Below are positions 2,720-63,994 of a stretch of DNA of 64,000 bases, piece after piece; position 1 is the stretch's first letter, and each line of letters opens with the position of its first letter. A program made the position numbers and the translations under genes. The notes below the pieces were generated by a model, which worked only from the letters and a program-made list of their open reading frames with translations, ran no database searches and was not told where the DNA came from. Source of the stretch: Leucoraja erinacea (Eukaryota); assembly GCF_028641065.1 (NCBI RefSeq), contig NC_073382.1, positions 58,342,001-58,406,000 on the forward strand, given 5' to 3'.

Positions 2720-3276
2720 TGGCTAGTTTTCACGGGGCGACTTGACGCAAGATGTAGCCAGAGTGGAGTGGTCGTGGTCTAGCACGATATCACACGATAT
2801 AACGGGGGTAGAGTAAAGAGTTCCCACGGTACTCGGCAATTCTGTCATTTGTGCGAGTGACTTGTCCGTCTCCCGATCTTTCCCGAATCAACATCGTGGA
2901 CTGTAGTGTAGTTAATCACGTGGCACAAATGATGTTACTTTGTTGTCACACACTCTATTCGTTTTTTTCACCCGAGCTCTTTAATGAGCTGAAGAATAAT
3001 CTGTGTTTTTTTAGACAAATGTTGTTTGGTGTGATGCACCTTCTCTCAATATGTGCAAGAAGTCGTCTTTTTATTTTGTCAAATATGAATAAAGACTGTG
3101 TCTCACATTGACCGTGATGATTGTGTTATTTTATGATCTACTGAGAGGTGAAACTTTCAGTCTGAAGAAACTTTCAGCCCGAAACGCCACCCGTTCCTTC
3201 TATCCAGAGATGCTGCCTGTCCCGCTGAGTTGCTCCAAGCAACTGGTGTCTATCTTCAAAGGACTGACCAGGACTG

Positions 3277-3312
<36 letters not shown>

Positions 3313-3591
3313 CTCTCTCTCTCTCTCTCTCCCCCTCCCTCTCTCACAGGCATGAATGGATGAACTCCGCGGGCCAGGCAGCATCTACGGAGAGAAATGG
3401 ACAGCGACCCATTCTTCAGGCTGCCTTATGTCTCTTCCACCCCCCCCTCACCCCAACTCCCACCCACACACGCGAATGCTGGAGAAACTCAGCGGGTGCA
3501 GCGGGGCCGAAACGTTGTCTATTTCCTTCGTTCCATAGATGCTGCTGCACCCGCTGAGTTTCTGCAGCATTCGCGTGTGTGGTGGGGGTTG

Positions 3592-3624
<33 letters not shown>

Positions 3625-4010
3625 GACATAAGGCAGCCTGAAGAATGGGTCGTCTGTCCATTTCCCAAATGCTGTCTGGCCCGCGGAGTTCCTCCATTCA
3701 TGCCTGTGTGAGAGGGAGGGAGGGAGAGAGAGAGAGAGAGAGAGGCAGTCCTGGTCAGTCCTTTGAAGATAGACACCAGTTGCTTGGAGCAACTCAGCGG
3801 GACAGGCAGCATCTCTGGAGAGAAGGAACGGGTGGCGTTTCGGGTCGAGAGCCTTCTTCACACTCTCCCTCCCTCACTCTCACACAGGCATGAATGGAGG
3901 AACTCCGCGGGCCAGGCAGCATTTACGTTCCTTCTCTCCAGAGCGGCTGCCTGTCCCGCTGAGTTGCTCCAAGCAACTGGTGTCTATCTTCAAAGGACTG
4001 ACCAGGACTG

Positions 4011-4052
<42 letters not shown>

Positions 4053-4697
4053 CCTCTCCTCTCTCTCTCTCACACAGGCATGAATGGATGAACTCCGCGG
4101 GCCAGACAGCATCTACGGAGAGAAATGGACAGCGACCCATTCTTCAGGCTGCCTTATGTCTCCCCCCCCCCCCCCCCCCCCCCACCCCAACTCCCACCTA
4201 CACACACGAATGCTGGAGAAACTCAGCGGGTGCAGCGGGGCCGAAACGTTGTCTATTTCCTTCGTTCCATAGATGCCTGGCCCGCGGAGTTCCTCCAGTT
4301 AGAAACTGCTTTCAGACAAAAAGAGACACACTGACATTAATGAAATGCTTAGCTAGTTTTATTAGATTTGTATGTAAATAGCAAACTGGCTGGATTCACT
4401 CTATCCAACCTCCGGGTTCACCGTTGGCAGGAGTTCCCACGGTGACCGCAAGAGTTACTACGGATATCGCACGGGACACTTCGTTCATAAAATGTTGCAA
4501 TGCTCAACCACAAGTGCACAAGACACTCTTGGACAAATTCAAACATGTTTGAATTTTCTCCCGAGTACCCAAGGTACACGATTAGCTGCCGTTAGCGCCA
4601 CGGTGGTCCACGAATGCCGTATTGTTACCGCACGAGGTTCCCACGATGTCAAACTCTGGTTACCTCTTGCGTCAAGTCGCACCGTGAAAAGGGGGTT
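2720..4697. mobile_element. PIF/Harbinger-like non-autonomous DNA transposon carrying Penelope-derived palindromic cargo
   Basis: 38-bp inverted termini at 2727-2764 and 4653-4690 (TTTTCACGG.GCGACTTGACGCAAGA.GTA.CCAGAGT, 3 mismatches). Flanks are TAA and TCA. A 22-bp perfect palindrome lies at 4535-4556. Confidence 0.75.
3161..4297. repeat. Inverted plus direct triplication (A, inverted A, A) of a ~340-bp unit built from Penelope terminal pieces, (CT)n and poly-C
   Basis: 3161-3502 is the reverse complement of 3543-3862. About 3925-4275 repeats the first arm in direct orientation. Confidence 0.9.
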
Positions 4698-6149
4698 TCA
4701 AACAACTGTTTTGCCAACATTGTTCTAATAGCTGTCTTAGTACTACTTCCATTTTAGTGTTTCCAAGATTGGGCAGCAATCTGCCCTGCACCTTAACAGC
4801 AGAGGCATTGATAGAAATGTGCAGAATTGCAGATAACCACTCTGACGGCCGTTCTGTGTATTTTTTTTTTAATTGCCCGACAAGTTCAGCACTGGAGTAA
4901 TTTTTAAATCAGCCTCTAAAGCCGTCAACGCCGACAACGGGTAAAGGAAAGCTGGTTATTTTATGTATAAAAGTGCTCCTTAAGATGCCTTTAATTTAAA
5001 TTTTACGTTGCGAAAAGGTGATTTTTTTTCCCCTCATACGAACCGGCAGTATTTTTCCTGCCGATATGGGGTTTAAATTCACCGCAACCGCAACGTTCCA
5101 ATTGATCGCGTTCCAGAAAACACACTCGCAAGATGATTTAAATGGACATTAATTTAAGGTATTAAACATTAAATTCCTTCCATTTGGCCTATAAATCCAT
5201 GGCAATGAGATTTAAAAATTATGTTATATTTTGAATTCTTGTGTAAACGTTATTTGGACACTTAGGCTATTTAAAAATGTTAATCTATTCTTAAGAAATT
5301 GATAGATGTTTAGATCTAGTAATTGAATTTTGTAATTAGCTACAATTAGGTAACTAACTAATTATATGCTTTAATTTCAAGTCATCTAAGTAAGATTGTT
5401 TCATAATTGTTTCAGAATGTTTCAATCTATAATAACTGAAAAGTTATTTCAGTTCTCTTCATTTTTAAGAAAGTTATGGCCATTTGACTGTCCACGGTCA
5501 CAGCTTTTGTGTTAAGTCAATGGAAAAGCAAGATGCTAATTTCCGAGTATGAAAATGGCCATAACTTATTTAATACTGAAGATATGAAAGTGAATTAGGG
5601 GTCAAATTAAACTCCTTTTTATGCTTTATCTGATGGGATAAATTACAGACTTGATTTTTAAAATCTCAAAATTTTGTAACATTGCTACACTCTGGCTTCA
5701 CGATTTTCCAGCTCTTCATGCTTAAAACCCAATTGATATATTTACTTTTGGTAACATAGACATACCTGGCACCAGATTGTACAATATGCAATACTCTGAG
5801 ATAAAAACAAAAAATACTGAAAACACTTGGAAATGCCAAATGTTTTCAGAATTTTTGGTTTTATTTTCCATTTATACCATTTGAAATTTGTTTTTCAAAT
5901 ATACTAATAAGCTCTTGTCCAACAGGTACATATATTTTCTCAAGATTCATCATTGGACGTATTTCACTAAAAGGTGGTAGTGATGGGAAATGAGGGGCAA
6001 TCTCAACTCTTCAGAGCTATTTATATAATGCCTAACAAAATCACAGTACACTGTTACTCCTCTTAGCACTAGTCGTGAGAGTGCTCAATCATGGTCCTGG
6101 AGTCCAAACACTCACAGGTACATACCACCCGGCACCGCTCCCATACCGT

Positions 6150-9445: not shown

Positions 9446-9842
9446 GAATTGGAAGTCTAGAATGAAGATCTAGAAGAGATGAAGATAGCAAATTATAATA
9501 AGTTCCAAGTAATAGAAGATTACAGTATATAAAAAGTGTCTAATTAAACATATGACAATAGGCAGGAATGCTGAGCTGAGGAACTGGTGCCGAGAGGTGA
9601 AGGTAAACTCATTCAGACCATAGAGGGAAAAGAAATGGTGAAGAAGCTTAATCTTGAATACCTCCAAACTACTTCTAGAGGGACCAATGAATAATAGCCA
9701 CCACTGTTGCCCAAGTAAAAAGTCATAACAGTTAAATCCAAAGTACTATTAAAATAGTAAAAATAAATAATCTTAAAAACTGAAAATGAACATTGAATTA
9801 CATTTTAATGTAATCGAACTTTTATGACAATGAGGAAAAACA

Positions 9843-10045
9843 TAAAAATGCTGGAGGAACCCAACTGGTCAGGCAGCATCTGCGGAGGGAATGGTCAGAC
9901 GTGTTTCGTGTCACGAGTCTGAAGAAGGTTCCTGACCTGAAACATCATCTGTCCATACCCTCCCCAGATGCTGCCTGACCTGCTGAATTCCTCTCACACT
10001 TTGTGTTTTGCTCAAGATTACAGCGTCTACAGTCTCTTGTGTACC
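9843..10045. mobile_element. Fold-back mini element made of two inverted Penelope termini joined at the hammerhead core
   Basis: The left arm (gctggaggaaccc..gtcaggcagcatctg) is the reverse complement of the right arm (cagatgctgcctgacctgctgaattcc). The core CTGAAGA-AGGT-tcctg-ACCT-GAAAC-ATC is at 9919-9946. Confidence 0.75.
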
Positions 10046-10364
10046 ATGATACTGGGCCTTGATAGCAGAGAAGCTTAAACCTTACCCTAACTGTGCACAT
10101 AATACTATCTGTACCGTTCAAATGCTATTATTTTTTCATTCATTTCTCTTCTTCTGTATGATACTTACATTTTCTGCTATTATATTTTAACAATGTGCTT
10201 ATTTTTTCGATTTAGTTTTGTAGCAATGAGCACCCAGAGAGAAGTGCATACAGGATCATACCTGGAAAACAGAGGGTTGGAGAATAAGTGCAGGGTTCTA
10301 ACAGGAAGACAAGATATAGGTCACCCTTGTCATATATTCTCATTTGCCTAATATCAAGTAACAA

Positions 10365-10606
10365 ATTTTTACACAGAGAGTGGTGAATCTCTGGAATTCT
10401 CTGCCACAGAAGGTAGTTGAGGCCAGTTCATTGGCTATATTTAAGAGGAAGTTAGATGTGGCCCTTGTGGATAAAGGGATCAGGGGGTATGGAGAGAATG
10501 CAGGTACAGGATACCGAGTTGGATGATCAGCCATGATCCTATTGAATGGCGGTGCAGGCTCGAAGGGCCGAATGGCCTACTCCTACTCCTGCACCTATTT
10601 TCTATG
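10365..10606 (+). mobile_element. CR1 LINE 3' end (young family)
   Basis: Reverse complement of the 3' end of the CR1 at 17134-18512. Ends tttctatg. Confidence 0.9.
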
Positions 10607-11457
10607 AAAATCTGAATTTGAACAGAATGTTTGACCTTCCAAGGTAATATGAGATTGTACAACATCAATGAAATTACAAGTAGATGTGATAGCTGCAAGG
10701 TTTGATGATATTTTGGCCTTTGCTATCCCTTTTCACAAAAATAAAAGATGGAGAAAGGTCAGAAAGTGAAGAATATACCATGATCCTTTCATGAGCTTAG
10801 GAGGAGTGCAGCTATTTATTGGTATTTTCAAACAAAATTACTTTCTTAATGAAGTTATACTTGAATTATTGAAAATTCAGGTTAACTACATCCAACTTTT
10901 TTCAAACCTCTTTTACCAAAAAGAAACATTTATAGATGTTTTGCAAAGTATTCAATGCAAATTTTACTGAAATTACTCAATTACTTAAATAAATACAAAA
11001 AAAACCCACAAATACTTGGATAAAAAATACTTCAATATGTTTAAAATTACGAGTAACACTGCCTGCTTCCAATCAAGCAAAGCAGTGCATCAATTTAAAT
11101 TTTTGAACAGAGTAGATATAGACAAACGGGAACCAAACAAAAAGAACTTTAAAGATATTTTATACACATCCGGTAAAGTCAGTACAAATGTTGGTCACAT
11201 TAATGCAATGCTTGCTTGGAGGTTACAAGTAAACTGATCTCATTCACCCATCTGCCTTCCAGATGAGCTCTCTTTTCAACTGACATCCCTAAAATAAATA
11301 GTTGCTTTCCCCATTCTAAACTGAAGAATAGACAATAGATTTGAATGAGGACTCTGAGGTGATTGAAACGTGGATAAAATTATTAAATCAAAAACCTAGC
11401 TTGACAACTGTAAATGTAAATGCTGCCAGGAACCCAAAAGTAATCAAACTTAAAATA

Positions 11458-11659
11458 AATACAAAAAAACTGGAGAAAATCAGCGGGACAGGCAGCATCT
11501 CTGGAGAGAAGGAATGGGTGACATTATGGGTCGAGGCTCTTCTTCAGACCCAAAACGTCACCCATTCCTTCTCTCCAGAGATGCTGCCTGTCCTGCTGAG
11601 TTACTCCAGCTTTTTGTGTCTATCTTCGGTTTAATCCAGCATCTGCAGTTCCTTCTTAC
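11458..11659. mobile_element. Fold-back mini element made of inverted Penelope termini fused within the hammerhead core
   Basis: gggacaggcagcatctctggagagaaggaatgggtgac pairs with gtcacccattccttctctccagagatgctgcctgtcc. The centre is tcttcttcagacccaaaacgtc. Confidence 0.85.
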
Positions 11660-11792
11660 CCAGTAATTAAACTTGCTGGACATCGATTTCTGCTGTGGCA
11701 TATAACCGCTTGAGAATCTGAAACATCTGAAAATTTTCCATTGTTTTAAGAATATGTCTGGATTAATTGAAAACTACTTTTAAATTTATTTT

Positions 11793-12747: not shown

Positions 12748-13767
12748 TGAATGAATGAATGAATGAATCTCTTTATTGTCATTGCACATGGTACAACGAA
12801 ATTTAAAAGTCAATCCCATGGTGTGATTCACAAGAGCAATTTTAAATATATAAGAAAAGGTAAAATTATATACATATTAAAAACAAATACAGATAAATAA
12901 CAATAGCAGCTGAGGTAGAACCATTCAGTTGAATGTGAGTGTTATTTCTTATTTTGCATTGTTAAGTTCACGTATGGCTATGGGGTAAAGCTGTCTCTGA
13001 GTCTGTTTGTGCGAGTTTTGAAAGACCTGTACCGTCTGCCAGAGGGCAGTAGGTGGAACAGTTTGTGTCCAGGGTGGGAAGGGTCCTTCAGGATGTTGGC
13101 TGCCCTGCCAAGGCAGCGAGAGCTGAAGATGTCCTTCAGGGACGGCAGTGGGCAGCCAGTGATTTTTTGTGCGGTGTTGATGACCCGTTGAAGGGCTCTC
13201 CTGTCCGCTGCAGAGCAGCTGGCATACCATGTGGTTATACAGTACGCCAGCACACTCTCGATGGAGCAGCGGTAGGGCACCAGCAGCTTCTCCTCCAGGT
13301 TGTTTTTCCTGAGGATCCTCAGAAAGTAGAGTCGCTGCTGGGCCTTCTTGACTGCTGTGGTGGTGTTTGTAGTCCAGGAGAGATCCTCCGTAATTTGTGT
13401 GCCCAGGAGTCTGAAGTCTGATACCCTTTCCACACAGTCCCCATTGATGAATAGGGGTTTGGGGGCTGCACTGTTCTTACGGAAGTCTATGATAATTTCC
13501 TTTGTTTTTGTGGTGTTTAGGATGAGGTTGTTGTCTGAACACCACGCTGCCAGTCTTTGGACTTCCTCCCTGTAGGCTGTCTCATTTCCTCCTGAGATAC
13601 GTCCAACCACAGTCGTGTCGTCCGCAAACTTGACGATGGTGTTGGTGGAGTGGGCGGGGGCACAATCGTGGGTGTAGAGGGCGTAGAGGAGGGGGCTCAA
13701 CACACAGCCCTGTGGGGAGCTGGTGCTGAGTGTGATGGGGGTGGAGAGGTGATGGCCCAGTCTGACG
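12748..13767 (-). mobile_element. Rex1/Babar LINE, 5'-truncated, RT C-terminal half largely intact
   Basis: ORF 12978-13817 encodes PQGCVLSPLLYALYTHDC, KFADDT, KKAQQRLYFLR, ILKDPSHPGH and LPSGRRYRS. The tail is caatgacaataaa plus (ATTC)n. Confidence 0.92.
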
Positions 13768-15355
13768 GTGGTTACACCAATCTTAAAGAAACCTGGTCTT
13801 GATCCCTCCTCTCTCATTAACTACTGCCCAATCTCAAACCTCCCCTTTCTTTCAAAAACCCTGGAGTGTATAGTTGCGTCGCAACTTCATTCCCACCTCC
13901 CTGCGTATAACCAACTTGAACCCATCCAATCTGGCTTTCGCCTCCTCCATAGCACAGAAACTGCTCTCCTCAAAGTCCTCAACGACCTCCTCACCTCTGC
14001 TGACACTTGTTCCCTCAACATCCTCATCCTCCTCGACCTGAGCGTAGCCTTCGATACAGTGAACCATAACATCCTGCTCACCAGACTCGAGGACCTCGGC
14101 ATTGAAGGCTCTGCACTCAGCTGGCTCCGTTCCTACCTTTCCAACAGATCCCACTTCATCTCTCTCCACAACCACACCTCTGCTACAGCCACAGTCACTC
14201 AAGGCGTTCCCCAAGGCTCTGAACTCGGCCCCCTCCTCTTCATCATCTACATCCTCCCCCTTGGTCAGATACTCCGCCACTTCAACCTGAACTTCCACTG
14301 TTACGCCGATGACACCCAGATCTACCTCGGCACCAAATCCCCCCACAACCCCCCTCTCCCATATCAACTCCTGTTTGGCAGCTATAAAAACCTGGATGCA
14401 ACATAACTTCCTCAAACTCAACAGCGATAAGACAGAATTCCTCCTCATAAGCTCCAAAGCCACACTCAGCAAAATCAGTAACCCCACTCTCATCATCGAC
14501 GGCACCACTGTCTCCCCATCTCCCCAGGCCCGCAACCTTGGCATGATCTTTGACTCCACCCTCTCCCTTGAGCCTCACATCCGCCATGTCATTAAAACCT
14601 CCCTTTCATCTCCGCAACATCGCCAAACTCAGACCATCTCTCACACGTCCCGCTGCTGAAAGACTCATCCATGCCTTCATCTCCTCCCGACTGGACTATT
14701 GCAACTCACGTCTCCTTGGCATCAGCTCCACCTACATCAACCGACTCCAACTGGTCCAGAACGCAGCCGCCCGACTCATCACCCACACCAAATCCTGGCA
14801 TCACATCACTACAGTCCTCAAACAACTTCACTGGCTTCCCATCTCCCACCGGATCACCTACAAAATCCTGATCCTCACCTACAAAGCCCTCCACCATCTG
14901 GCCCCCCCATATCTCACTGACCTCCTCTCCCCCTACCAACCCTCATGGTCCCTCAGATCCACATCAGCCGGTCTCCTCTCCATCCACATGTCCAACCTCC
15001 GCAGTTTTGGGGACAGAGCCTTCTCCAGGGCAGTTCCCAGGCTCTGGAACTCCCTCTCCCAACTGATCCGCAATTCCGTGTCCCTCACCATCTTCCAGTC
15101 CCGCCTCAAGACCCATCTCTTCACCTCTGCCTATCCTTAGCCCCACGTCTCCCTCCCTTTTCATCTGTGCATTAATTGCCTCATATTGTGTTTTGAATTG
15201 TATTCTGTCTTTACTTTGTGTACTAGTCATGTCTCTACTATTTATTTCATTCCCCTTACATGTTTTTCCTCTACATGCTAAATTTTTGTAAGGTGTCCTT
15301 GAGACTCTTGAAAGGCGCCCATAAATAAAATTTATTATTATTATTATTATTATTA
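13768..15355 (+). mobile_element. L2 LINE, 5'-truncated, with frameshifted ORF2
   Basis: Encodes VTPILKKPGLDP, PISNLPFLSK, QSGFR, LDLSVAFDTV, GVPQGS, YADDTQIY, SRLDYCN, QLHWLP and GDRAFS. Ends ataaataaaa(tta)n. Confidence 0.93.
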
Positions 15356-17133: not shown

Positions 17134-18512
17134 CATAGAAACATAGAAATTAGGTGCAGGAGTAGGCCATTCGGCCCTTCGAGCCTGCACCGCCATTCAA
17201 TATGATCATGGCTGATCATCCAATTCAGTATCCCGTACCTGCCTTCTCTCCATACCCTCTGATCCCCTTGGCCACAAGGGCCACATCTAACTCCCTCTTA
17301 AATATAGCCAATGAACTGGCCTCAACTACCCTCTGTGGCAGAGAGTTCCAGGGATTCACCACTCTCTGTGTGAAAAAAGTTCTCCTCATCTCGGTTCTAA
17401 AGGATTTTCCCCTTATCCTTAAGCTGTGACCCCTTGTCCTGGACTTCCCCAACATCGGGAACAATCTTCCTGCATCTAGCCTGTCCAACCCCTTAAGAAT
17501 TTTGTAAGTTTCTATAAGATCCCCTCTCAATCTCCTAAATTCTAGAGAGTATAAACCAAGTCTATCCAGTCTTTCTTCATAAGACAGTCCTGACATCCCA
17601 GGAATCAGTCTGGTGAACCTTCTCTGCACTCCCTCTATGGCAATAATGTCCTTCCTCAGATTTGGAGACCAAAACTGCACGCAATACTCCAGGTGTGGTC
17701 TCACCAAGACCCTGTACAACTGCAGTAGAACCTCCCTGCTCCTATACTCAAATCCTCTTGCTATGAAAGCCAACATACCATTTGCTTTCTTTACTGCCTG
17801 CTGCACCTGCATGCCTACCTTCAATGACTGGTGTACCATGACACCCAGGTCTCGCTGTATCTCCCCCTTTCCCAATCGGCCACCATTTAGATAATAATCT
17901 GCTTTCCCGTTTTTGCCACCAAAATGGATAACCTCACATTTATCCACATTATACTGCATCTGCCAAACATTTGCCCATTCACCCAGCCTATCCAAGTCAC
18001 CTTGCAGTCTCCTAGCATCCTCCTCACACCTAACACTGCCCCCCAGCTTAGTGTCATCCGCAAACTTGGAGATATTGCCTTCAATTCCCTCATCCAGATC
18101 ATTAATATATATTGTAAATAGCTGGGGTCCCAGTACTGAGCCTTGCGGTACCCCACTAGTCACTGCCTGCCATTGTGAAAAGGACCCGTTTACTCCTACT
18201 CTTTGCTTCCTGTTTGCCAGCCAGTTCTCTATCCACATTAATACTGAACCCCCAATGCCATGTGCTTTAAGTTTGTATACTAATCTCTTATGTGGGACCT
18301 TGTCGAAAGCCTTCTGGAAGTCCAGATACACCACATCCACTGGTTCTCCCCTATCCACGCTACTAGTTACATCCTCGAAAAATTCTATAAGATTCGTCAG
18401 ACATGATTTACCTTTCGTAAATCCATGCTGACTTTGTCCAATGATTTCACCACTTTCCAAATGTGCTGCTATCCCATCTTTAATAACTGACTCTAGCAGT
18501 TTCCCCACTACC
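17134..18512 (-). mobile_element. Young CR1 LINE, 5'-truncated, uninterrupted RT reading frame of ~430 aa
   Basis: ORF 17225-18535 encodes QHGF, YLDFQKAFDKV, GVPQGSVLGP, KFADD, RPHLEY and FFTQRVV. Tail is (TTTCTATG)n. Confidence 0.95.
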
Positions 18513-18919
18513 GCATCTAATCCGAAACACAACAACGTTTTACAGATTAAGCTATTTCAATTTAAAATGTGAGGATATATTTCTGATAGTAATATACAAG
18601 TACATGCATTACTATAGAAAATAAACATTGGTAGAATAATGTGAGATTGTACACCACAACAAAGATTACAACAGAATTTATAGCATATTTTTAAGAACAG
18701 ATTTCAATTATTTTTCCTGTCATAGCATTAATAGTTATTGTATTAGAATTGATAGCACAGAAACAGGACATTTGTATTGACTGATCTTTACCATTATACT
18801 TGATCCATTTCAGCCTCTTTGCGTTTAATTCAGAAACACAAGAAATTGCAGATGCTAGAATCTTAAGCAAAGCGAAGTGCTGGAAGAACTCAGCGGGTGA
18901 GGCAGGTCAGATACAGGGA

Positions 18920-25296: not shown

Positions 25297-26990
25297 TATA
25301 ACCATATAACAATTACAGCACGGAAACGGGCCATCTCGACCCTTCTAGTCCGTGCCGACCATGTATTCTCCCCTAGTCCCATATACCTGCGTTCAGACCA
25401 TAACCCTCCATTCCTTTCCCGTCCATATAACTATCCAATTTATTTTTAAATAATAAAAACTAACCTGCCTCCACCACCTTCACTGGAAGCTCATTCCACA
25501 CAGCCACCACTCTCTGAGTAAAGAAGTTCCCCCTCATGTTACCCCTAAACTTTTGTCCCTTAATTCTCAAGTCATGTCCCCTTGTTTGAATCTTCCCTAC
25601 TCTCAGTGGGAAAAGATTATCCACGTCAACTCTGTCTATCCCTCTCATCATTTTAAAAACCTCTATCAAGTCCCCCCTTAACCTTCTGCGCTCCAAAGAA
25701 TAAAGCCCTAACTTGTTCAACCTTTCTCTGTAACTTAGTTGCTGTAACCCAGGCAACATTCTAGTAAATCTCCCCTGTACTGTCTCTATTTTGTTGACAT
25801 CCTTCCTATAATTAGGCGACCAAAATTGTACACCATACTCCAGAATTGGCCTCACCAATGCCTTGTACAATTTTAACATTGCATCCCAACTTCTATACTC
25901 AATGCTCTGATTTATAAAGGCCAGCACACCACACCACCACCACCCTTTACCACCCTATCTACATGAGATTCCAATTTACCACACCATCATCCAGATCATT
26001 GATGTACATGACAAAAGTGGACCCAACACAGATCCCTGTGGCACCCCACTAGTCACTGGCCTCCAACCTGACAAACAACCAACCATTACTCTCTGGCATC
26101 TCCCATTCAGCCACTGTTGAATCCATCTTGCTACTCCACCATTAATACCCAACAATTGAACCTTCTTAACCAACCTTCCGTGAGGAACCTTGTCAAAGGC
26201 CTTACTCAAATCCATATATACAACATCCACTGCTTTACCCTCATCAATTTCCCGAGTAACCTCTTCAGAAAATTCAAGAAGATTAGTCAAACATGACCTT
26301 CCAGGCACAAATCCATGTTGACTGTTCCTAATCAGACCCTGTTTATCCAGATGCTTATATATATTATCTCTAAGTATCCTTTCCATTAATTTGCTCACCA
26401 CTGACGTCAAACTAACAGGTCTATAATTGCTAGGTTTACTCTTAGAACCCTTTTTAAACAATGGAACAACATGCGCAGTACGCCAATCCTCTGGCACCAT
26501 TCCCGTTTCTAATGACATTTGAAATATTTCTGTCATAGCCCCTGCTATTTCTACACTAACTTCCCTCAATGTCAATGTCCTAGGGAATATCCTGTCCGGA
26601 CCTGGAGACTTATCCACTTTTATATTTCTCAAAAGTGTCAGTACTTCCTCTTCTTTGATCCTCATAGTTTCCATAGCTACTCTACTTGTTTCCCTTACCT
26701 CACATAATTCAATATCCTTCTCCTTGGTGAATACCGAAGAAAAGAAATTTGTTCAATATCTCCCCCATCTCTTTTGGCTCTGCAGATAGCTGTCCACTCT
26801 GACTCTCTAATGGACCAACTTTATCCCTCGTTATCCTTTTGCTATTAATATAGCTCTAGAAACCCTTTGGATTTACTTTCACCTTACTTGCCAAAGCAAC
26901 CTCATATCTTCTTTTAGCTTTTCTAATTTCTTTCTTAAGATTCTTTTTACATTCTTTATACTCCTCAAGCACCTCATTTACTTATGCTGC
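25297..26990 (-). mobile_element. CR1 LINE (second family), internally deleted
   Basis: ORFs 25976-26674 (KSPGPD, NYRPVSLTS, QHGF, DLSKAFDKV, GVPQGS) and 25460-25927. The FADD region is deleted near 25930-25990. Tail reads (ataaccat)n on the plus strand. Confidence 0.92.
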
Positions 26991-40205: not shown

Positions 40206-40781
40206 CTAACTTGAGAAATTCTTGAGAAATAATCACAAACACACAACATATTCAATCCATAAGGATTCTACAAACGGGAGAAAGATCTGCAGGTAAATTC
40301 TAAAAGAAAAGAGACATTTGTACTGTCAGAATTCAAACACTCTTCAGTTTTTGTGGGAACACTCAGATGAAAGAGAATTATTTTTAAAGAATAATTATTA
40401 TATTTCCTCACTTCACCAAGCAACCAAATTCCTTAAATCTTTTGCATTAAAAAAAGATCAATCTAGACAGACAGGCAGGGGCCTTGCTATTTGGGACCAT
40501 ACAATCATGATCTTAAAATTTTAAAAAGATTCCCTACATCGTGGAAGATACTTTGCATTTATGAAATATGTCACTTCAAACAATTCTTTAAGTAGCTCAC
40601 ATGAAACTCCATCCTATTCATCCAAATAGCAAGATAACTATCTAAACCCGTAGGCAGTCATTCCAGTTTAAAACAAGATATCCTTAATCTTGCACACCAA
40701 TTAAATACTGCTTCTTTGAAAACAAAGAGAATTACATTCTATCACATAAAATAAGCATCTGGTGAAGGTGTCCCAAAATAC

Positions 40782-42040
40782 ATTGCCGACTGCTTTGGGG
40801 CCACCTCCTGCACCTACACACAACTGACTGACTTCATCCACTTCACCACCAACTTCCATCCGGCACTCCAATACACCTGGACCATTTCCGACACTTCCCT
40901 ACCATTCCTTGACCTCACCATCTCCATCGCAGGGAACAGACGTCTGACCGACATACACTACAAACCAACTGACTCACATGGCTATCTGGATTACACATCT
41001 TCCCACCCTGCCCCCTGTAAAGACTCCATCCCCTACTCCCAATTCCTCCGCCTACGCCGCATCTGTTCCCAGGATGAGACATTCCATACCAGGGCATCGG
41101 AAATGTCCTCGTTCTTCAGGGAACGGGGATTTCCCTCCGCCACCATAGATGAGGCTCGCACCAGGGTCTCATCCATACCCCGCAACACTGCTCTCTCTCC
41201 CCATCCCCGCACTCGCAACAAGGGCAGTCTTTCTCGCCTTTCACCCCACCAGCCGGCAAATACAACACATAATCCTCCTCCATTTCCGCCACCTCCAACG
41301 TGACCCCACCACTCGCCACATCTTCCCATCTCCCCCTATGTCTGCCTTCCGCAAAGACCGCTCCCTCCGCAACACCCTTGTCAATTCTTCCCTTCCCTCC
41401 CACCGCCTCCCCGGGCACCTTCCGTTGCAACCGCAAGAAATGCAACACCTGTCCCTTCACCTCCCCCCTCGACTCCATTCAAGGTCCCAAGCAGTCGTTC
41501 CAGATGCGACAAAGGTTCACCTGTATCTCCTCCAACCTCATCTGCTGCATCCGCTGCTCTAGATGTCAGCTGATTTACATCGGGGAGACTAAGCGGAGGT
41601 TGGGCGATCATTTCGCCGAACACCTCCACTCAGTCCGCAATAACCTACCTGAACTCCCGGTGGCTCAGCACTTCAACTCCCCCTCCCATTCTCAATCCAA
41701 CCTCTCTGTCCTGGGTCTCCTCCATTGCCAGAGTGAGCAACACCGGAAATTGGAGGAACAGCACCGCATATTCCGCCTGGGCAGCTTGCGTCCTGATGGC
41801 ATGAACGTTGAATTCTCCCAATTTTGCTAGCCCTTGCTGTCTCCTCCCCTTCCTTAACCCTCGAGCTGTCTCCTCCCATCCCCCCGCCCTCGGGCTCCTC
41901 CTCCTCCCTTTTTTCTTCCTTCTCCCCCCCCACACCCCCATCAGTCTGAAGAAGGGTTTTGGCCCGAAACGTCGCCTATTTCCTTCGCTCCATATATGCT
42001 GCTTCACCCGCTGAGTTTCTCCAGCAATTTTGTGTACCTA
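40782..42040 (+). mobile_element. Penelope-like retroelement, 5'-truncated (RT thumb, GIY-YIG, hammerhead), 9-bp TSD
   Basis: Encodes FHPALQYT..LPFLDL..YKPTDSHGYLDYTSSHP..SIPYSQFLRLRRICS, CNRKKCNTC and CSRCQLIYIGETKRRL. TSD CCAAAATAC at 40773-40781 and 42041-42049. Confidence 0.93.
41946..41973 (+). ncRNA. Putative minimal hammerhead ribozyme core
   Basis: CUGAAGA-A-GGGU[UUUG]GCCC-GAAAC-GUC, about 115 nt after the GIY-YIG stop. Confidence 0.6.
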
Positions 42041-50155: not shown

Positions 50156-50406
50156 CTCCATTCCCCACTGGACATCACAATAGCAGAGGTGAACATCCAA
50201 AGAATCAATAAGCTCACAGAAGTAGCCCAAGCCAAATCCATCAGTAACAGAATCCTGCACAATGATTCATGTATAATACGTTAAAATCAAACACCTGTGG
50301 GCCTGCTTTTTTACTTATGGAAAACACTTTCTACATTGAAACATGTGGCCAAATGTGGCAATAACACAATTAAATATGCATCACAACCTGTGCTCCTTGT
50401 GTCCTT

Positions 50407-50540
50407 TGTTTAAGAAGGAACTGCAGATGCTGGAAAATCGAAGGTCTGAAGAAGGGTTTCGATCTGAAACGTTGCCTATTTCTTTTGCTCCATAGATGCT
50501 GCTGCACCCGCTGAGTTTCTCCAGCATATTTGTGTACCTC
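50407..50540. mobile_element. Mini Penelope fold-back element: inverted terminus joined directly to the hammerhead core
   Basis: The antisense terminus (tttaagaaggaactgcagatgctggaaaatcgaagg) switches to the sense strand right at CTGAAGA (50446). Confidence 0.8.
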
Positions 50541-52209
50541 CTTGTGTCCTTCGGCACTAGGCACAATACATATAGTCTGCAAAATTGGGCAAATCCAAGT
50601 TTCATTGTCTGCTAAGATCAAAAACTTTCCTCCACTGATTTCACCCTCATTTCAATCACCTACTGCATAAAACTTATGCCTAACATTGAAAACATTTCTG
50701 TATCAATGTTACATTCTACATCTAACACAATCAAGCGTTATCTAACTGAACATTGTGCAGGAAATTAATCTTGTCTCATGCATATTTATGCTATGGCATA
50801 AGTTTCTGAAAAAATACATAACCACACTCCTTAGACACTTTAACAAATCATCCTTTAGATACACCAGGGCCTCTACATAAACAAAACAAACGCAAACACA
50901 TCAAAAGGCAATGGTTCACTGCACAAGATGGACCCTCAAAATTAAAAAAAGTATGATCCTTTCATGTTTGGAAACAAATTATTTTTGGAATTGTATTCTA
51001 CCTTGTAGAGCATCAACGTCTTACTAGAATACTCTAAAAAACCATCAGACAATAGTCCCAAACCATTAGAAAATTTTATATTCGAAGAGCATAAAATATA
51101 TTGCTTTCTCTTGCTGAATATATTCACAGTATATTGTTGATATGAATATCAAATCATCCAAAGATTTAAGCTGGTATTTTCATAATTTATCCTATATCTC
51201 AAACACCAAAAACAACTACTGAACTACTGTACCTAAATTACATTAGCGACTAACAAACTGAGTTCAAAACATAAATCAAGTACATATATTTGCATATTTC
51301 AAAACGAGAAACTAGTTTTCAAGGGAGTAATTAAGCCAATTTACATCATTATTCAAAAACGGCATTCCATTAAAGATAATTAATGTAACATAAACAGATT
51401 GGAATGAGAATCCGAGTGCACAATGTACAGTTTAATCAATACCAGGGCACAGATAAGAGTTTTGATGCATGTCTGCTTGAGTGCTGGTGAAAATGAGATT
51501 TCAGCAAGATTAAATATTGTTAGCTCATCTACATTCTAAGCAAACCACTCCATTTGCAAAATAAAGCTGAAAAATAAAAGCTCTGAGTTTTTCACAGGTG
51601 CATCTGTTTCTGGTCTTTTTAAACAATGTCGTGTGTATTCAGTTGTGGCATTTCTTCTAAGCACAGTAGTCGAGTGTTCTATGGAAGGATTTAAATAGTA
51701 CAGACGCATACATTCAATGTCAGAATACAGTGCATCTTTGTCAAGAAGGATGCCACTGCAAACTTTCTTATTTGCTATTTCAGCAAGTGTGATCCGACAT
51801 TACTGGCCAAAAAGGGACAGAATTTTGCTTTTAATCGTGATTATGATCAAAACAAAGCAAAATCAACAAAATGAAATGCCATTTAATGAAATGCTCTCGG
51901 AGCAAAAATGTTCCAGAGCATTTCACAGATATGAAGCCAAATAAAAGATTGATGTCGAGACACACACAAAAGCCCACGGGGGTCAAAGGGCAAAAGGCTT
52001 GGTCGAAAATGATACTCTTAAAGGAGCTGCTTAAAGAAAGACAGAGGCAAGAAGAGGTTGCAAGGTTTGTGTGAAGGGTGGTATTTGGGAGCCTTGGCAA
52101 TTGATGGCACAGTTTCCAACAGTGAGAACTAATTTAAGAGAAGCTCTGGAGGCCAGAAGAGAGCGGGAGTAATGCAAATATATCAGATGGCTATAATGCT
52201 GGGACTCAC

Positions 52210-58882: not shown

Positions 58883-59100
58883 AGAGTCAAACAGCATGGA
58901 AATTGGTCTTTTGACCCAACTTGCCTATGCCAACCAAGATGCCCCATCTATATTAGTCCCACCAGCCAATGTTTGCCGCATATCCCTCTAAATCTTGCCT
59001 ATCCTTGTATGTGTCTAAACATCTTTTAAATGTTAGGTTCACAAAAAAGCTGGAGAAACTCAGCGGGTGCAGCAGCATCTATGGAGCGAAGGAAAAAGAC

Positions 59101-59128
59101 AACGTTTCGGGCCAAAACCCTTCTTCAG
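59101..59128 (-). ncRNA. Putative minimal hammerhead ribozyme core
   Basis: Minus strand CUGAAGA-A-GGGU[UUUG]GCCC-GAAAC-GUU. Confidence 0.55.
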
Positions 59129-60284
59129 ACTGATCGGGGGTGGGGGGGCGGGGAGAAGAAAGGAAAAAGGAGGAGGAGCCCGAAGGCTGGGGGATGGGAG
59201 GAGACAGCAGGAGGGCTGAGGAAGGGGAGGAGACAGCAAGGGCTAACAAAATTGGGAGAATTCAATGTTCATACCCCCAGGATGCAGACTCCCCAAGCAG
59301 AATATGACGTGCTGTTCCTCCAATTTCTGGTGTTGCTCGTTCTGGCCATGGAGGAGACCCAGGACAGAGAGGTCGGATATGGAGTGGGAGGGGGAGTTGA
59401 AGTGCTGAGCCACCGGGAGGTCAGCTTGGTTATTGCGGAGGTGTTCGGCGAAACGATCGGCCAACCTCCGCTTGGTCTCACCAATATAGATCTGCTGACA
59501 TCTAGTGCAGCGGATGCAATAGATGAGGTTGGAGGAGATGCAGGTAAACCTCTGTCGCACCTGGAACGACTGCTTGGGTCCTTGAATGGAGTCGAGGGGG
59601 GAGGTAAAGGGACAAGTGTTGCATCTCTTGCGGTTGCAATGGAAAGTGCCCGGGGAGGGGGTGGTCGGGAAGGAAGGGAAGAATTGACAAGGGAGTTATG
59701 GAGGTAGTGGTCTTTGCAGAAGGCAGATATGGGGGGAGATGGGAAGATGTGGCGAGTGGTGGAGTCACGTTGGAGGTGGCGAAACTGACAGAGGATTACT
59801 TGTTGTATGTGACGGCTGGTGGGGTGAAAGGTGAGGACTAGGGGGACTCTGCCCTTGTTGCGAGTGGGGGGGAATGGGGAGAGAGAGCAGTGTTGCGGGG
59901 TATGGAAGAGACCCTGGTGAGAGCCTCATCTATGGTGGAGGAGGGGAACCCCCGTTCCCTGAAGAATTAGGACATTTCAGATGCCCTGGTGTGGAATGCC
60001 TCATGCATTTCAACTCCCCCTCCCACTCCGTATCTGACCTCTCTGTCCCGGGTCTCCTCCATGGCCAGAGCGAGCAATACCGGAAATTGGAGGAACAGCA
60101 CCTCATATTCCGCTTGGGGAGTCTGCATCCTGGAGGCATGAACATTGAATTCTCACAATTTTGTTAGTCCTTGCTGTCTTCTCCCCTTCCTCAGCCCTCC
60201 TGCTGTCTCCTCCCATCCCCCAGCTTTTGGGCTCCTCCTCCTTTTTCCTTTCTTCTCCCCCCCCCCCCCCCACCCCCGATCAGT

Positions 60285-60312
60285 CTGAAGAAGGGTTTCG
60301 GCCCGAAACGTT
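60285..60312 (+). ncRNA. Putative minimal hammerhead ribozyme core
   Basis: CUGAAGA-A-GGGU[UUCG]GCCC-GAAAC-GUU. Confidence 0.58.
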
Positions 60313-60879
60313 GCCTTTTTCCTTCGCTTCATAGATGCTGCTGCACCCGCTGAGTTTCTCCAGCTTTTTTGTGTACCTTCGATTTTCCAGCATCTGCAGT
60401 TCCTTATTAAACATCTTTTAAATGTTGTTCTGCCAAATTTTGCTGAAGAAAGCACAATTTTCTAAGATGACTAATATAACTTAGTACCATTCCACAGAGC
60501 TGGGTCCAGTAAACCAAACCTGAAAATCTCATTACCCATTTGCTTAAGTGTCCAAGTTGTTCTTCATGATGTCCTTTAAATATGTCCATTACAAACCATG
60601 TTCTCGGGGTATCTAAATCTAAATTTTATTAGTTATTTAAGTTATGACATCGGATGGAAGCTGCATAACAAATCTCGTTACGCTTATGTGCAATGACAAT
60701 AAAATAAAATATATTATTATTATTATTATTATTAAATAAATAGCACAAAAGGAAACATTGGGCAGTCTCGGCCTATCCACTAGAATTTGGGATGGGTGGT
60801 TGAAACAAGAGACATTGAGGAGTCCTGACAGGACAGAAGCGAAGGTGAATGAATCCAGAATTGTGATTTTTTTTGGATC

Positions 60880-63798: not shown

Positions 63799-63994
63799 TT
63801 TGCTTAGTTTGCCTTAGGTTGTAAAGGTATCAGGTGAATTTGCTTAACTCCTTGCATTCTTAAGCTGTCAAATGTTGCAGAAAACTTCATTTTAAACTGA
63901 AAATTACGTTTTCTGCAACATTTGACAGCTTAAGAATGCAAGGAGTTAAGCAAATTCACCTGATACCTTAACAACCCAAGGCAAACTAAGCAAA
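63799..63994. repeat. Near-perfect inverted repeat, 87-bp arms, 22-nt spacer
   Basis: 63799-63885 matches the reverse complement of 63908-63994 with 2 mismatches. Confidence 0.95.

Follow-up and report, generated by a model that had tools for sequence, protein, structure and literature searches.

In the genome of Leucoraja erinacea, many copies of the terminus of a Penelope-like element (PLE), mirrored or not, end one or two bases before a hammerhead ribozyme motif and not at its predicted cut site. The mirrored copies are head-to-head pairs cut down to little more than this terminus; they are real and abundant, and they are a by-product of a known class of element. On balance, we consider it probable that they are dead, individually formed PLE stubs produced by twin priming, run-off at the RNA 5′ end and joining through microhomology, and most likely they are inert as elements. 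The ribozyme would thus lie at the junction because it fills the first 30 bases of the RNA and is self-complementary, not through cutting.

The window discussed here is a stretch of 64,000 nucleotides from contig NC_073382.1 (positions 58,342,001 to 58,406,000). All element positions are relative to +1, the C of the hammerhead CUGAAGA box, and the cleavage site is placed after +28, following the minimal-hammerhead layout in the accessible text of PMC4209133. An unbiased sample of 180 stretches of 10 kb, evenly spaced over the 21 largest contigs (1.8 Mb), gave 718 nhmmer hits, reduced to 688 arms once duplicates and scores below 50 were dropped; 6 arms at stretch edges were excluded from the end counts. 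Subfamily labels (A, A5, A52, B, C, D and E) are our own and denote clusters of sample hits; A, A5 and E are close to each other, as are C and D, and separation is not always possible. Arms were paired across gaps of up to 150 bases, with a reference reaching 260 bases upstream; long-armed pairs fall outside this rule.

Judged by its coding motifs, the parent is an endonuclease-bearing (EN+) PLE. The reference copy (40755-42040, plus strand) is a long 5′-truncated one comprising the end of the reverse transcriptase (RT), a CX4CXXC linker, a GIY-YIG region and the terminus. The RT motifs DKG and YIDD are present in another long copy (L241), which matches Pfam RVT_1 with E=2.4e-6 (27.8 bits, just below the cut-off of 29.6), and the endonuclease at 59243-59692 matches PF01541 above the cut-off (E=4.5e-5); three other fragments gave no Pfam match, and a PDB sequence search with the RT fragment returned none. 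The C-X4-C-X2-C linker occurs in the ORFs at 41273, 45918 and 59243. The available excerpts of PMC8557442 give a CX2-5CXXC linker between RT and endonuclease for Neptune and Nematis, so that the window ORFs carry the linker of the Neptune clade, one also found in Nematis. A minimal hammerhead sequence (CUGANGA, a 4-bp helix II and GAAA) can be recognized in every subfamily reference, and an Rfam scan of the window returned no hammerhead, only hairpin-type matches under the gathering scores. As excerpted in PMC8557442 and PMC3846280, an EN+ PLE insertion unit comprises a pseudo-LTR (pLTR), an adjacent inverted and 5′-truncated copy, a one-sided tail of 30-40 bp and a target duplication; the inverted, truncated, one-tailed layout is thereby already established. 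The optional tail and the inverted truncated copy are both present in the skate. Of 40 long copies listed, three were followed further upstream as candidates for a full-length unit with a 5′ pLTR, and all three are truncated. RT ORF fragments of other, LINE-type elements, identified by motif alone, lie at 12978-15140, 17225-18556 and 25460-26752.

A preliminary description had named five places in the window as short insertions, or possible look-alikes, in which an antisense PLE terminus meets a sense terminus in or beside the ribozyme core. Three of the five are clean head-to-head pairs, and they do come, as claimed, from different subfamilies (C, A and B) and lack any ORF, all ATG-open stretches being at most 49 amino acids long. 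For two of them arm mapping confirmed both the paired termini and the junction at the core. The first, described as 9843-10045 and remapped to 9836-10045, joins a tail-less antisense arm (9836-9912, minus strand, +91..+16, older subfamily C, 90% to the subfamily reference) to a tailed sense arm of subfamily C, again by arm mapping (9916-10045, plus strand, -2..about +128), which aligns as -2..+125 over 9916-10042 and contains a minimal hammerhead core at 9919-9946; the junction is thus +16 / -2, with 3 extra bases between the arms, and no target duplication was seen there by eye. The second (described as 11458-11659, remapped to 11452-11661) belongs to subfamily A: its tail-less antisense arm (11452-11549, minus strand) runs through a mutated core to -1, and its tailed sense arm (11547-11661, plus strand, +16..+131) starts inside helix II, so that -1 meets +16 across a 3-base overlap (11547-11549). 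It is flanked by target-site duplications at 11439-11451 and 11662-11674 that match at 12 of 13 bases, and an intact core is absent from both of its strands.

The third insertion (50407-50540, remapped to 50407-50539) is a head-to-head pair whose sense arm indeed ends at the core, but whose antisense arm ends about 90 bases away from it, at the second RT start site. Here a tail-only arm of subfamily B (50407-50445, minus strand, +129..+91, 100% to the reference) overlaps by 2 bases a tail-less subfamily B arm (50444-50539, plus strand, -1..+94) with a core at 50446-50473; the left target-site duplication (50393-50406) matches the right copy (50538-50551) at 14 of 14 bases. The new junction at 50442 had been credited with a 4-bp helix I; the pairing exists on paper, but helix II is mutated and the hammerhead fold (computed at -4.3 kcal/mol) is less stable than the minimum-energy prediction (-6.7 kcal/mol). 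The centre of the palindrome given as 3161-3862 likewise consists of fold-back PLE ends, but it is not an independent simple insertion. Its subfamily B junction (3475-3571) joins an antisense arm ending at +56 to a sense arm beginning at +16, the outer arms being oppositely oriented with their 5′ ends outside, and it sits inside a composite palindrome (3159-3864) of which a second copy with identical flank occurs at a locus on another contig (L153), so that 3475-3571 does not count as an independent event. Around this fold-back, nested PLE stubs together with simple repeats form a composite (window 3140-4300, L153:1900-2800) that probably travels within a larger repeat or duplication; in the window, it is further duplicated internally (3864-4297). 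The fifth place, at about 5795-5870, had been named as a possible older, core-less look-alike and is not confirmed as PLE-derived: it is an imperfect AT-rich palindrome (5804-5862, 59 bp, 85%) with high composition bias and no convincing PLE match (best E values 0.048 and 0.37). One further head-to-head insertion of the same family is long (59035-60413), with a tail-less antisense arm, a tailed sense arm and endonuclease coding sequence; it has a 19-base target duplication (59016-59034, 60408-60426) and its junction is far away from the core.

In the 1.8-Mb sample the 688 arms form 124 head-to-head pairs, 23 tail-to-tail pairs and 61 same-strand neighbours, a density of about 69 head-to-head pairs per Mb, or some 150,000 genome-wide by extrapolation. 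The pairs are commoner than chance, and target duplications flank 59 of the 124 as against 5 of 300 random flank pairs; selected simple copies have them in 33 of 106 cases. The fold-back count is a lower bound, since the score cut missed a short antisense mate beside 19 of the 434 "simple" copies (chance level 8 of 1000). The 3′ ends of the arms fall into two groups, near +95 and near +131, and exactly one arm carries the 35-nt tail in 65 of the 77 pairs left after setting aside 47 with an unclassifiable end (49% expected, p=1e-10). Beyond the tail, the 212 tailed arms are followed only by unrelated repeats. With gaps of up to 40 bases there are 115 close pairs, 48 of them with more than 3 bases separating the arms, and in 104 of the 115 both arms come from the same group.

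The clustering of junctions at the ribozyme, a central claim of the preliminary description, is borne out: at least one arm ends within -8..+28 in 110 of the 124 pairs, and within -8..+2 in 78. The main peak recurs among simple copies, however, with 150 of 434 ending there compared with 104 of 248 arms in pairs (p=0.059), so that the clustering is real but, contrary to what had been supposed, not specific to inversions. When the test is restricted to arms extending to at least +60 (405 simple, 232 paired), simple copies end at a rate of 7.7% per base within -8..+2, as opposed to 1.9% within +3..+8 and 0.4-1.1% in all remaining intervals, upstream ones included; the contrast covers nine other intervals, at 0.4-1.9% per base. 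The corresponding rate for paired arms, 16% per base, is inflated by the pairing rule because long-armed pairs are counted as simple copies. Genome-wide, the match to native sequence in copies with a perfect core ends at 0 in 5,176, at -1 in 8,772, at -2 in 6,312 and at -3 in 3,664, and a further 21,010 copies match as far as -4 or more; 23,924 of 44,934 thus depart within 0..-3, with a mode at -1, point mutations included. The 145 simple ends at the peak share no sequence upstream, and templated repeats of the 5′ end precede 8 of them (2.3% expected), a weak excess.

Paired arms have, in addition, a second cluster of ends in the self-complementary helix II (+9..+18: 50 of 232 paired versus 27 of 405 simple, p=1e-7). 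Direct joins overlap by at least 3 bases in 26 of 47 cases, against 7% expected, and the commonest junctions make use of one of two palindromes, a short one centred about position 0 (5 of 115) or that of helix II. Taken together, the helix II enrichment and the overlaps suggest that the ribozyme supplies self-complementary sequence for joining. In subfamily B, which is without the 3-base match, the equivalent junction has 336 copies as against 807, although the pattern also catches E and there is no clean denominator. At four loci (L251, L253, L075:9427-9666 and L158:3923-4107), short repeats of the element's 5′ end lie within the junction, as if priming had been retried.

In 11452-11661 and its kind, each arm holds sequence that the other lacks (-1..+15 in one, +96..+131 in the other). 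A single self-primed cDNA cannot yield such a pair whereas two cDNAs can, which argues against the self-priming to which the accessible text of PMC3846280 attributes the junction. The available text on an anole element, Anolis Poseidon PAc (PMC11167929), offers a close parallel: its protein nicks and extends both strands, reverse transcription has two internal start sites, one at either end of the tail, the protein is predicted to be dimeric, and ribozyme cleavage is not needed in vitro. The 3′ ends near +95 and +131 match these two start sites. The anole element is unlike ours in belonging to another clade by its linker motif, and the study as excerpted concerns start sites, not cDNA ends. 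The pairs are also reminiscent of L1 twin priming (10.1101/2024.08.27.596794, as excerpted), where both nicks prime, micro-complementarity joins the products and inversions carry an internal duplication or deletion; unlike in that process, the second primer site in the skate is fixed (+95) and not a matter of chance complementarity, and most pairs duplicate almost a whole arm. Tail-only arms ending at +91..+97, at 50407 and in five sampled copies, correspond to the non-overlapping inversion of classical twin priming.

In the scheme that we favour, a dimeric RT-endonuclease would nick both target strands, and each cut target end would prime one cDNA, at one internal start site each. The cDNAs would run off an RNA 5′ end located just before CUGA, most likely the point where transcription starts at an initiator-like motif. 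Their free ends could then anneal via the short palindrome around position 0 or via helix II. Twin priming appears highly probable, and, given twin priming, it seems fairly probable that the stop originates from the transcription start. Since the main peak lies after the whole core has been copied and no upstream sequence is shared, run-off fits better than a stall at the fold. Positions -4..+2 resemble what we take to be the polymerase II initiator consensus, and they resemble a 3′ splice site equally well. As for an extra G derived from the cap, hand counts over the first 100 listed places, all on contig 1, give a preceding G for 43 of 100 ends at -1 and for 42 of 100 at -2 (p 0.005 and 0.002 against base composition, but 0.15 and 0.14 against dinucleotide context), and no lone added G occurs at 17 loci chosen as G-preceded subfamily B sites. 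RNA reads aligned to the native copy have unaligned overhangs that begin at 41943 and 41944 (-2 and -1) and agree poorly, besides joints to the opposite strand at 41943-41945; this pattern mirrors genomic copies transcribed as part of host RNA. The four RNA runs, poly(A) or single-cell, consist mostly of such read-through in both orientations, do not count as evidence separate from the DNA, and contain no site where many molecules begin.

Rather unlikely, in our view, is an otherwise identical twin priming in which the -2/-1 end comes from RNA processing or a block, be it a splice-site-like CAG, trimming halted where protein binds the ribozyme, or stalling ahead of the pyrimidine tract. A pyrimidine-rich tract (78-95%) and CAG do precede position 0 in six of the seven references despite their differing upstream sequence, and this stretch (-45..-1) is a candidate 3′ splice site. 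In D. virilis Penelope, moreover, the 3′ end of an intron lies here, at helix I, and transcription starts about 120 bases upstream (PMC4209133, PMC2377424, available text), while the anole ribozyme is protein-assisted (PMC11167929, in part). Nevertheless, there is no common upstream exon sequence, none of 243 arms is an intron-less or spliced-type copy (one apparent case is a deletion), stops are least frequent in the subfamilies whose tracts are richest in C (B 21/43 and A52 14/32, versus A 67/78), and a stall at the fold would be expected on its 3′ side, not beyond it.

We regard it as very improbable that the fold-backs are a non-autonomous family mobilised in its own right and copied from masters, be it retrozyme-like, an alternative raised in the preliminary description, or MITE-like. 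In favour of such a family is the junction of 11452-11661 itself, which recurs as 807 exact 22-base copies genome-wide (none for a reversed-pattern control); 40 of 40 scored hits match this element over most of its length, and the tail sits on the helix II arm at 18 of 20 informative loci, a fixed side as expected from a master and a polarity absent from the general sample (26 versus 22). It had been asked whether identical junctions recur at many loci with their own target duplications, and they do, at 17 of 30 loci. In those 30, the first of 344 copies of a 28-base version of the junction, both arms are A in 18, A52 in 3, E in 2 and D in 1, with 6 mixed or uncallable. Moreover, non-consensus, non-CpG variants are shared between the two arms of one element more often than in shuffled pairs: 21 versus 6.2+-2.2 for A-A (31 pairs), 8 versus 1.8 for subfamily B (13 pairs) and 8 versus 2.4 for the recurrent-junction set (18 pairs), and above shuffled in every group tested, C/D being weakest (p=0.047). 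Later conversion between arms could account for part of this sharing. One junction in four subfamilies, together with variants shared within elements, points to formation anew and not to one family: the same junction arises recurrently, although the 18/20 tail polarity stands against this. The 115 close pairs represent 107 different junctions, and in the larger groups no position shows a fixed left-right difference between arms; secondary masters may contribute a little. As for a retrozyme nature, the fold-backs resemble non-LTR retrozymes (PMC7229834; 10.64898/2026.07.22.740005) in being non-coding, with a type I hammerhead sequence and an origin from a PLE terminus. Retrozymes, however, as described in the accessible portions of those sources, form head-to-tail arrays (150-450 bp), carry canonical ribozymes and give rise to circular RNAs, whereas the skate elements are single head-to-head pairs and not tandem monomers, their minimal cores often broken or destroyed, and their native helix I is 2 bp instead of the stable helix I of a canonical type I hammerhead. 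Two fold-backs on different contigs (L078:8360-8605 and L137:749-993) share a 16-base spacer and similar flanks and were likely copied within a larger repeat.

We give hardly any credence to the idea, also raised beforehand, that hammerhead self-cleavage sets the template end or switch point. The sample does show a slight excess of ends at +27..+31 (31 of 113, p=0.013), in an interval picked post hoc over a subfamily-variable stretch; genome-wide in subfamily B, however, 678 ends at +29 compare with 652 at the control position +31 (p=0.49), both including a mutation background. The main peak lies about 30 bases upstream of the predicted cut, native helix I is 2 bp, five cores do not adopt the hammerhead when folded singly in silico, and core mutants of the anole element leave insertion in vitro unchanged, cleavage being dispensable there (PMC11167929, in the available text). 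The cleavage reading is thus largely refuted for the main peak; one ribozyme stem, helix II, does matter, and the main peak is beyond a fully copied core. Bases conserved downstream of the cut site might find a better match in another 5′ partner, for instance after splicing. Generic 5′ truncation with a size bias, in which the clustering merely reflects short products, would account for the scatter through the background end rate of 0.4-1.1% per base and for part of the 16% rate through the omission of long-armed pairs, but it deserves as little credence and is refuted for the main peak, barring extensions hidden in the upstream low-complexity tract, as smooth decay cannot produce a rate in simple copies that climbs about tenfold in an 11-base interval and drops back upstream, and ends with target duplications directly at -2/-1 speak against such hidden extensions.

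With the layout of EN+ PLE insertions already known, the new part is quantitative evidence on how these insertions end. The pairs are like the EN+ units in the accessible text of PMC8557442 and PMC3846280 in their head-to-head order, tail at one end, target duplications and short palindromes or overlaps at the junction; they are unlike them in being cut down to a 130-210 bp terminus at about 69 per Mb, and in their sharp -2/-1 peak, which that text does not describe. The openly accessible papers that we searched contained neither a 5′-end peak at the hammerhead edge nor a PLE strong-stop product. In the accessible part of PMC4209133, minimal hammerheads are reported on opposite strands 100-700 bp apart, the motifs being mostly solitary. 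On how PLE integration is completed, and why pseudo-LTRs, inverted copies and one-sided tails form, the stubs provide a very large natural record; it is more in keeping with priming of two cDNAs than with self-priming, speaks against ribozyme cleavage as what fixes the insertion ends, and leads to a precise prediction of where the RNA starts. Possibly, though we put this forward with some doubt, PLEs make a retrovirus-style strong-stop cDNA: reverse transcription would begin 95 or 131 bases into a transcript that starts just before the hammerhead and would run off the 5′ end of that transcript, with a template jump needed for a full pseudo-LTR; fold-backs and the more numerous simple stubs would then be failed jumps, and the dimer would give each target strand one start site. 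The stubs would also add many RNA hairpins to host transcripts, and fold-back joints are indeed seen in RNA reads.

Other repeats in the window and sample deserve mention. A 196-bp, 94% palindrome at 63799-63994 is unrelated to the PLE terminus and has no match across the 1.8-Mb sample, and an AT-rich repeat of about 850 bp (4841-5689) has 80-86% matches at three sampled loci (L045, L063 and L068). At five sampled loci, PLE stubs begin near -4 right behind the tail of one SINE-like repeat, an association that may reflect target preference or a composite element.
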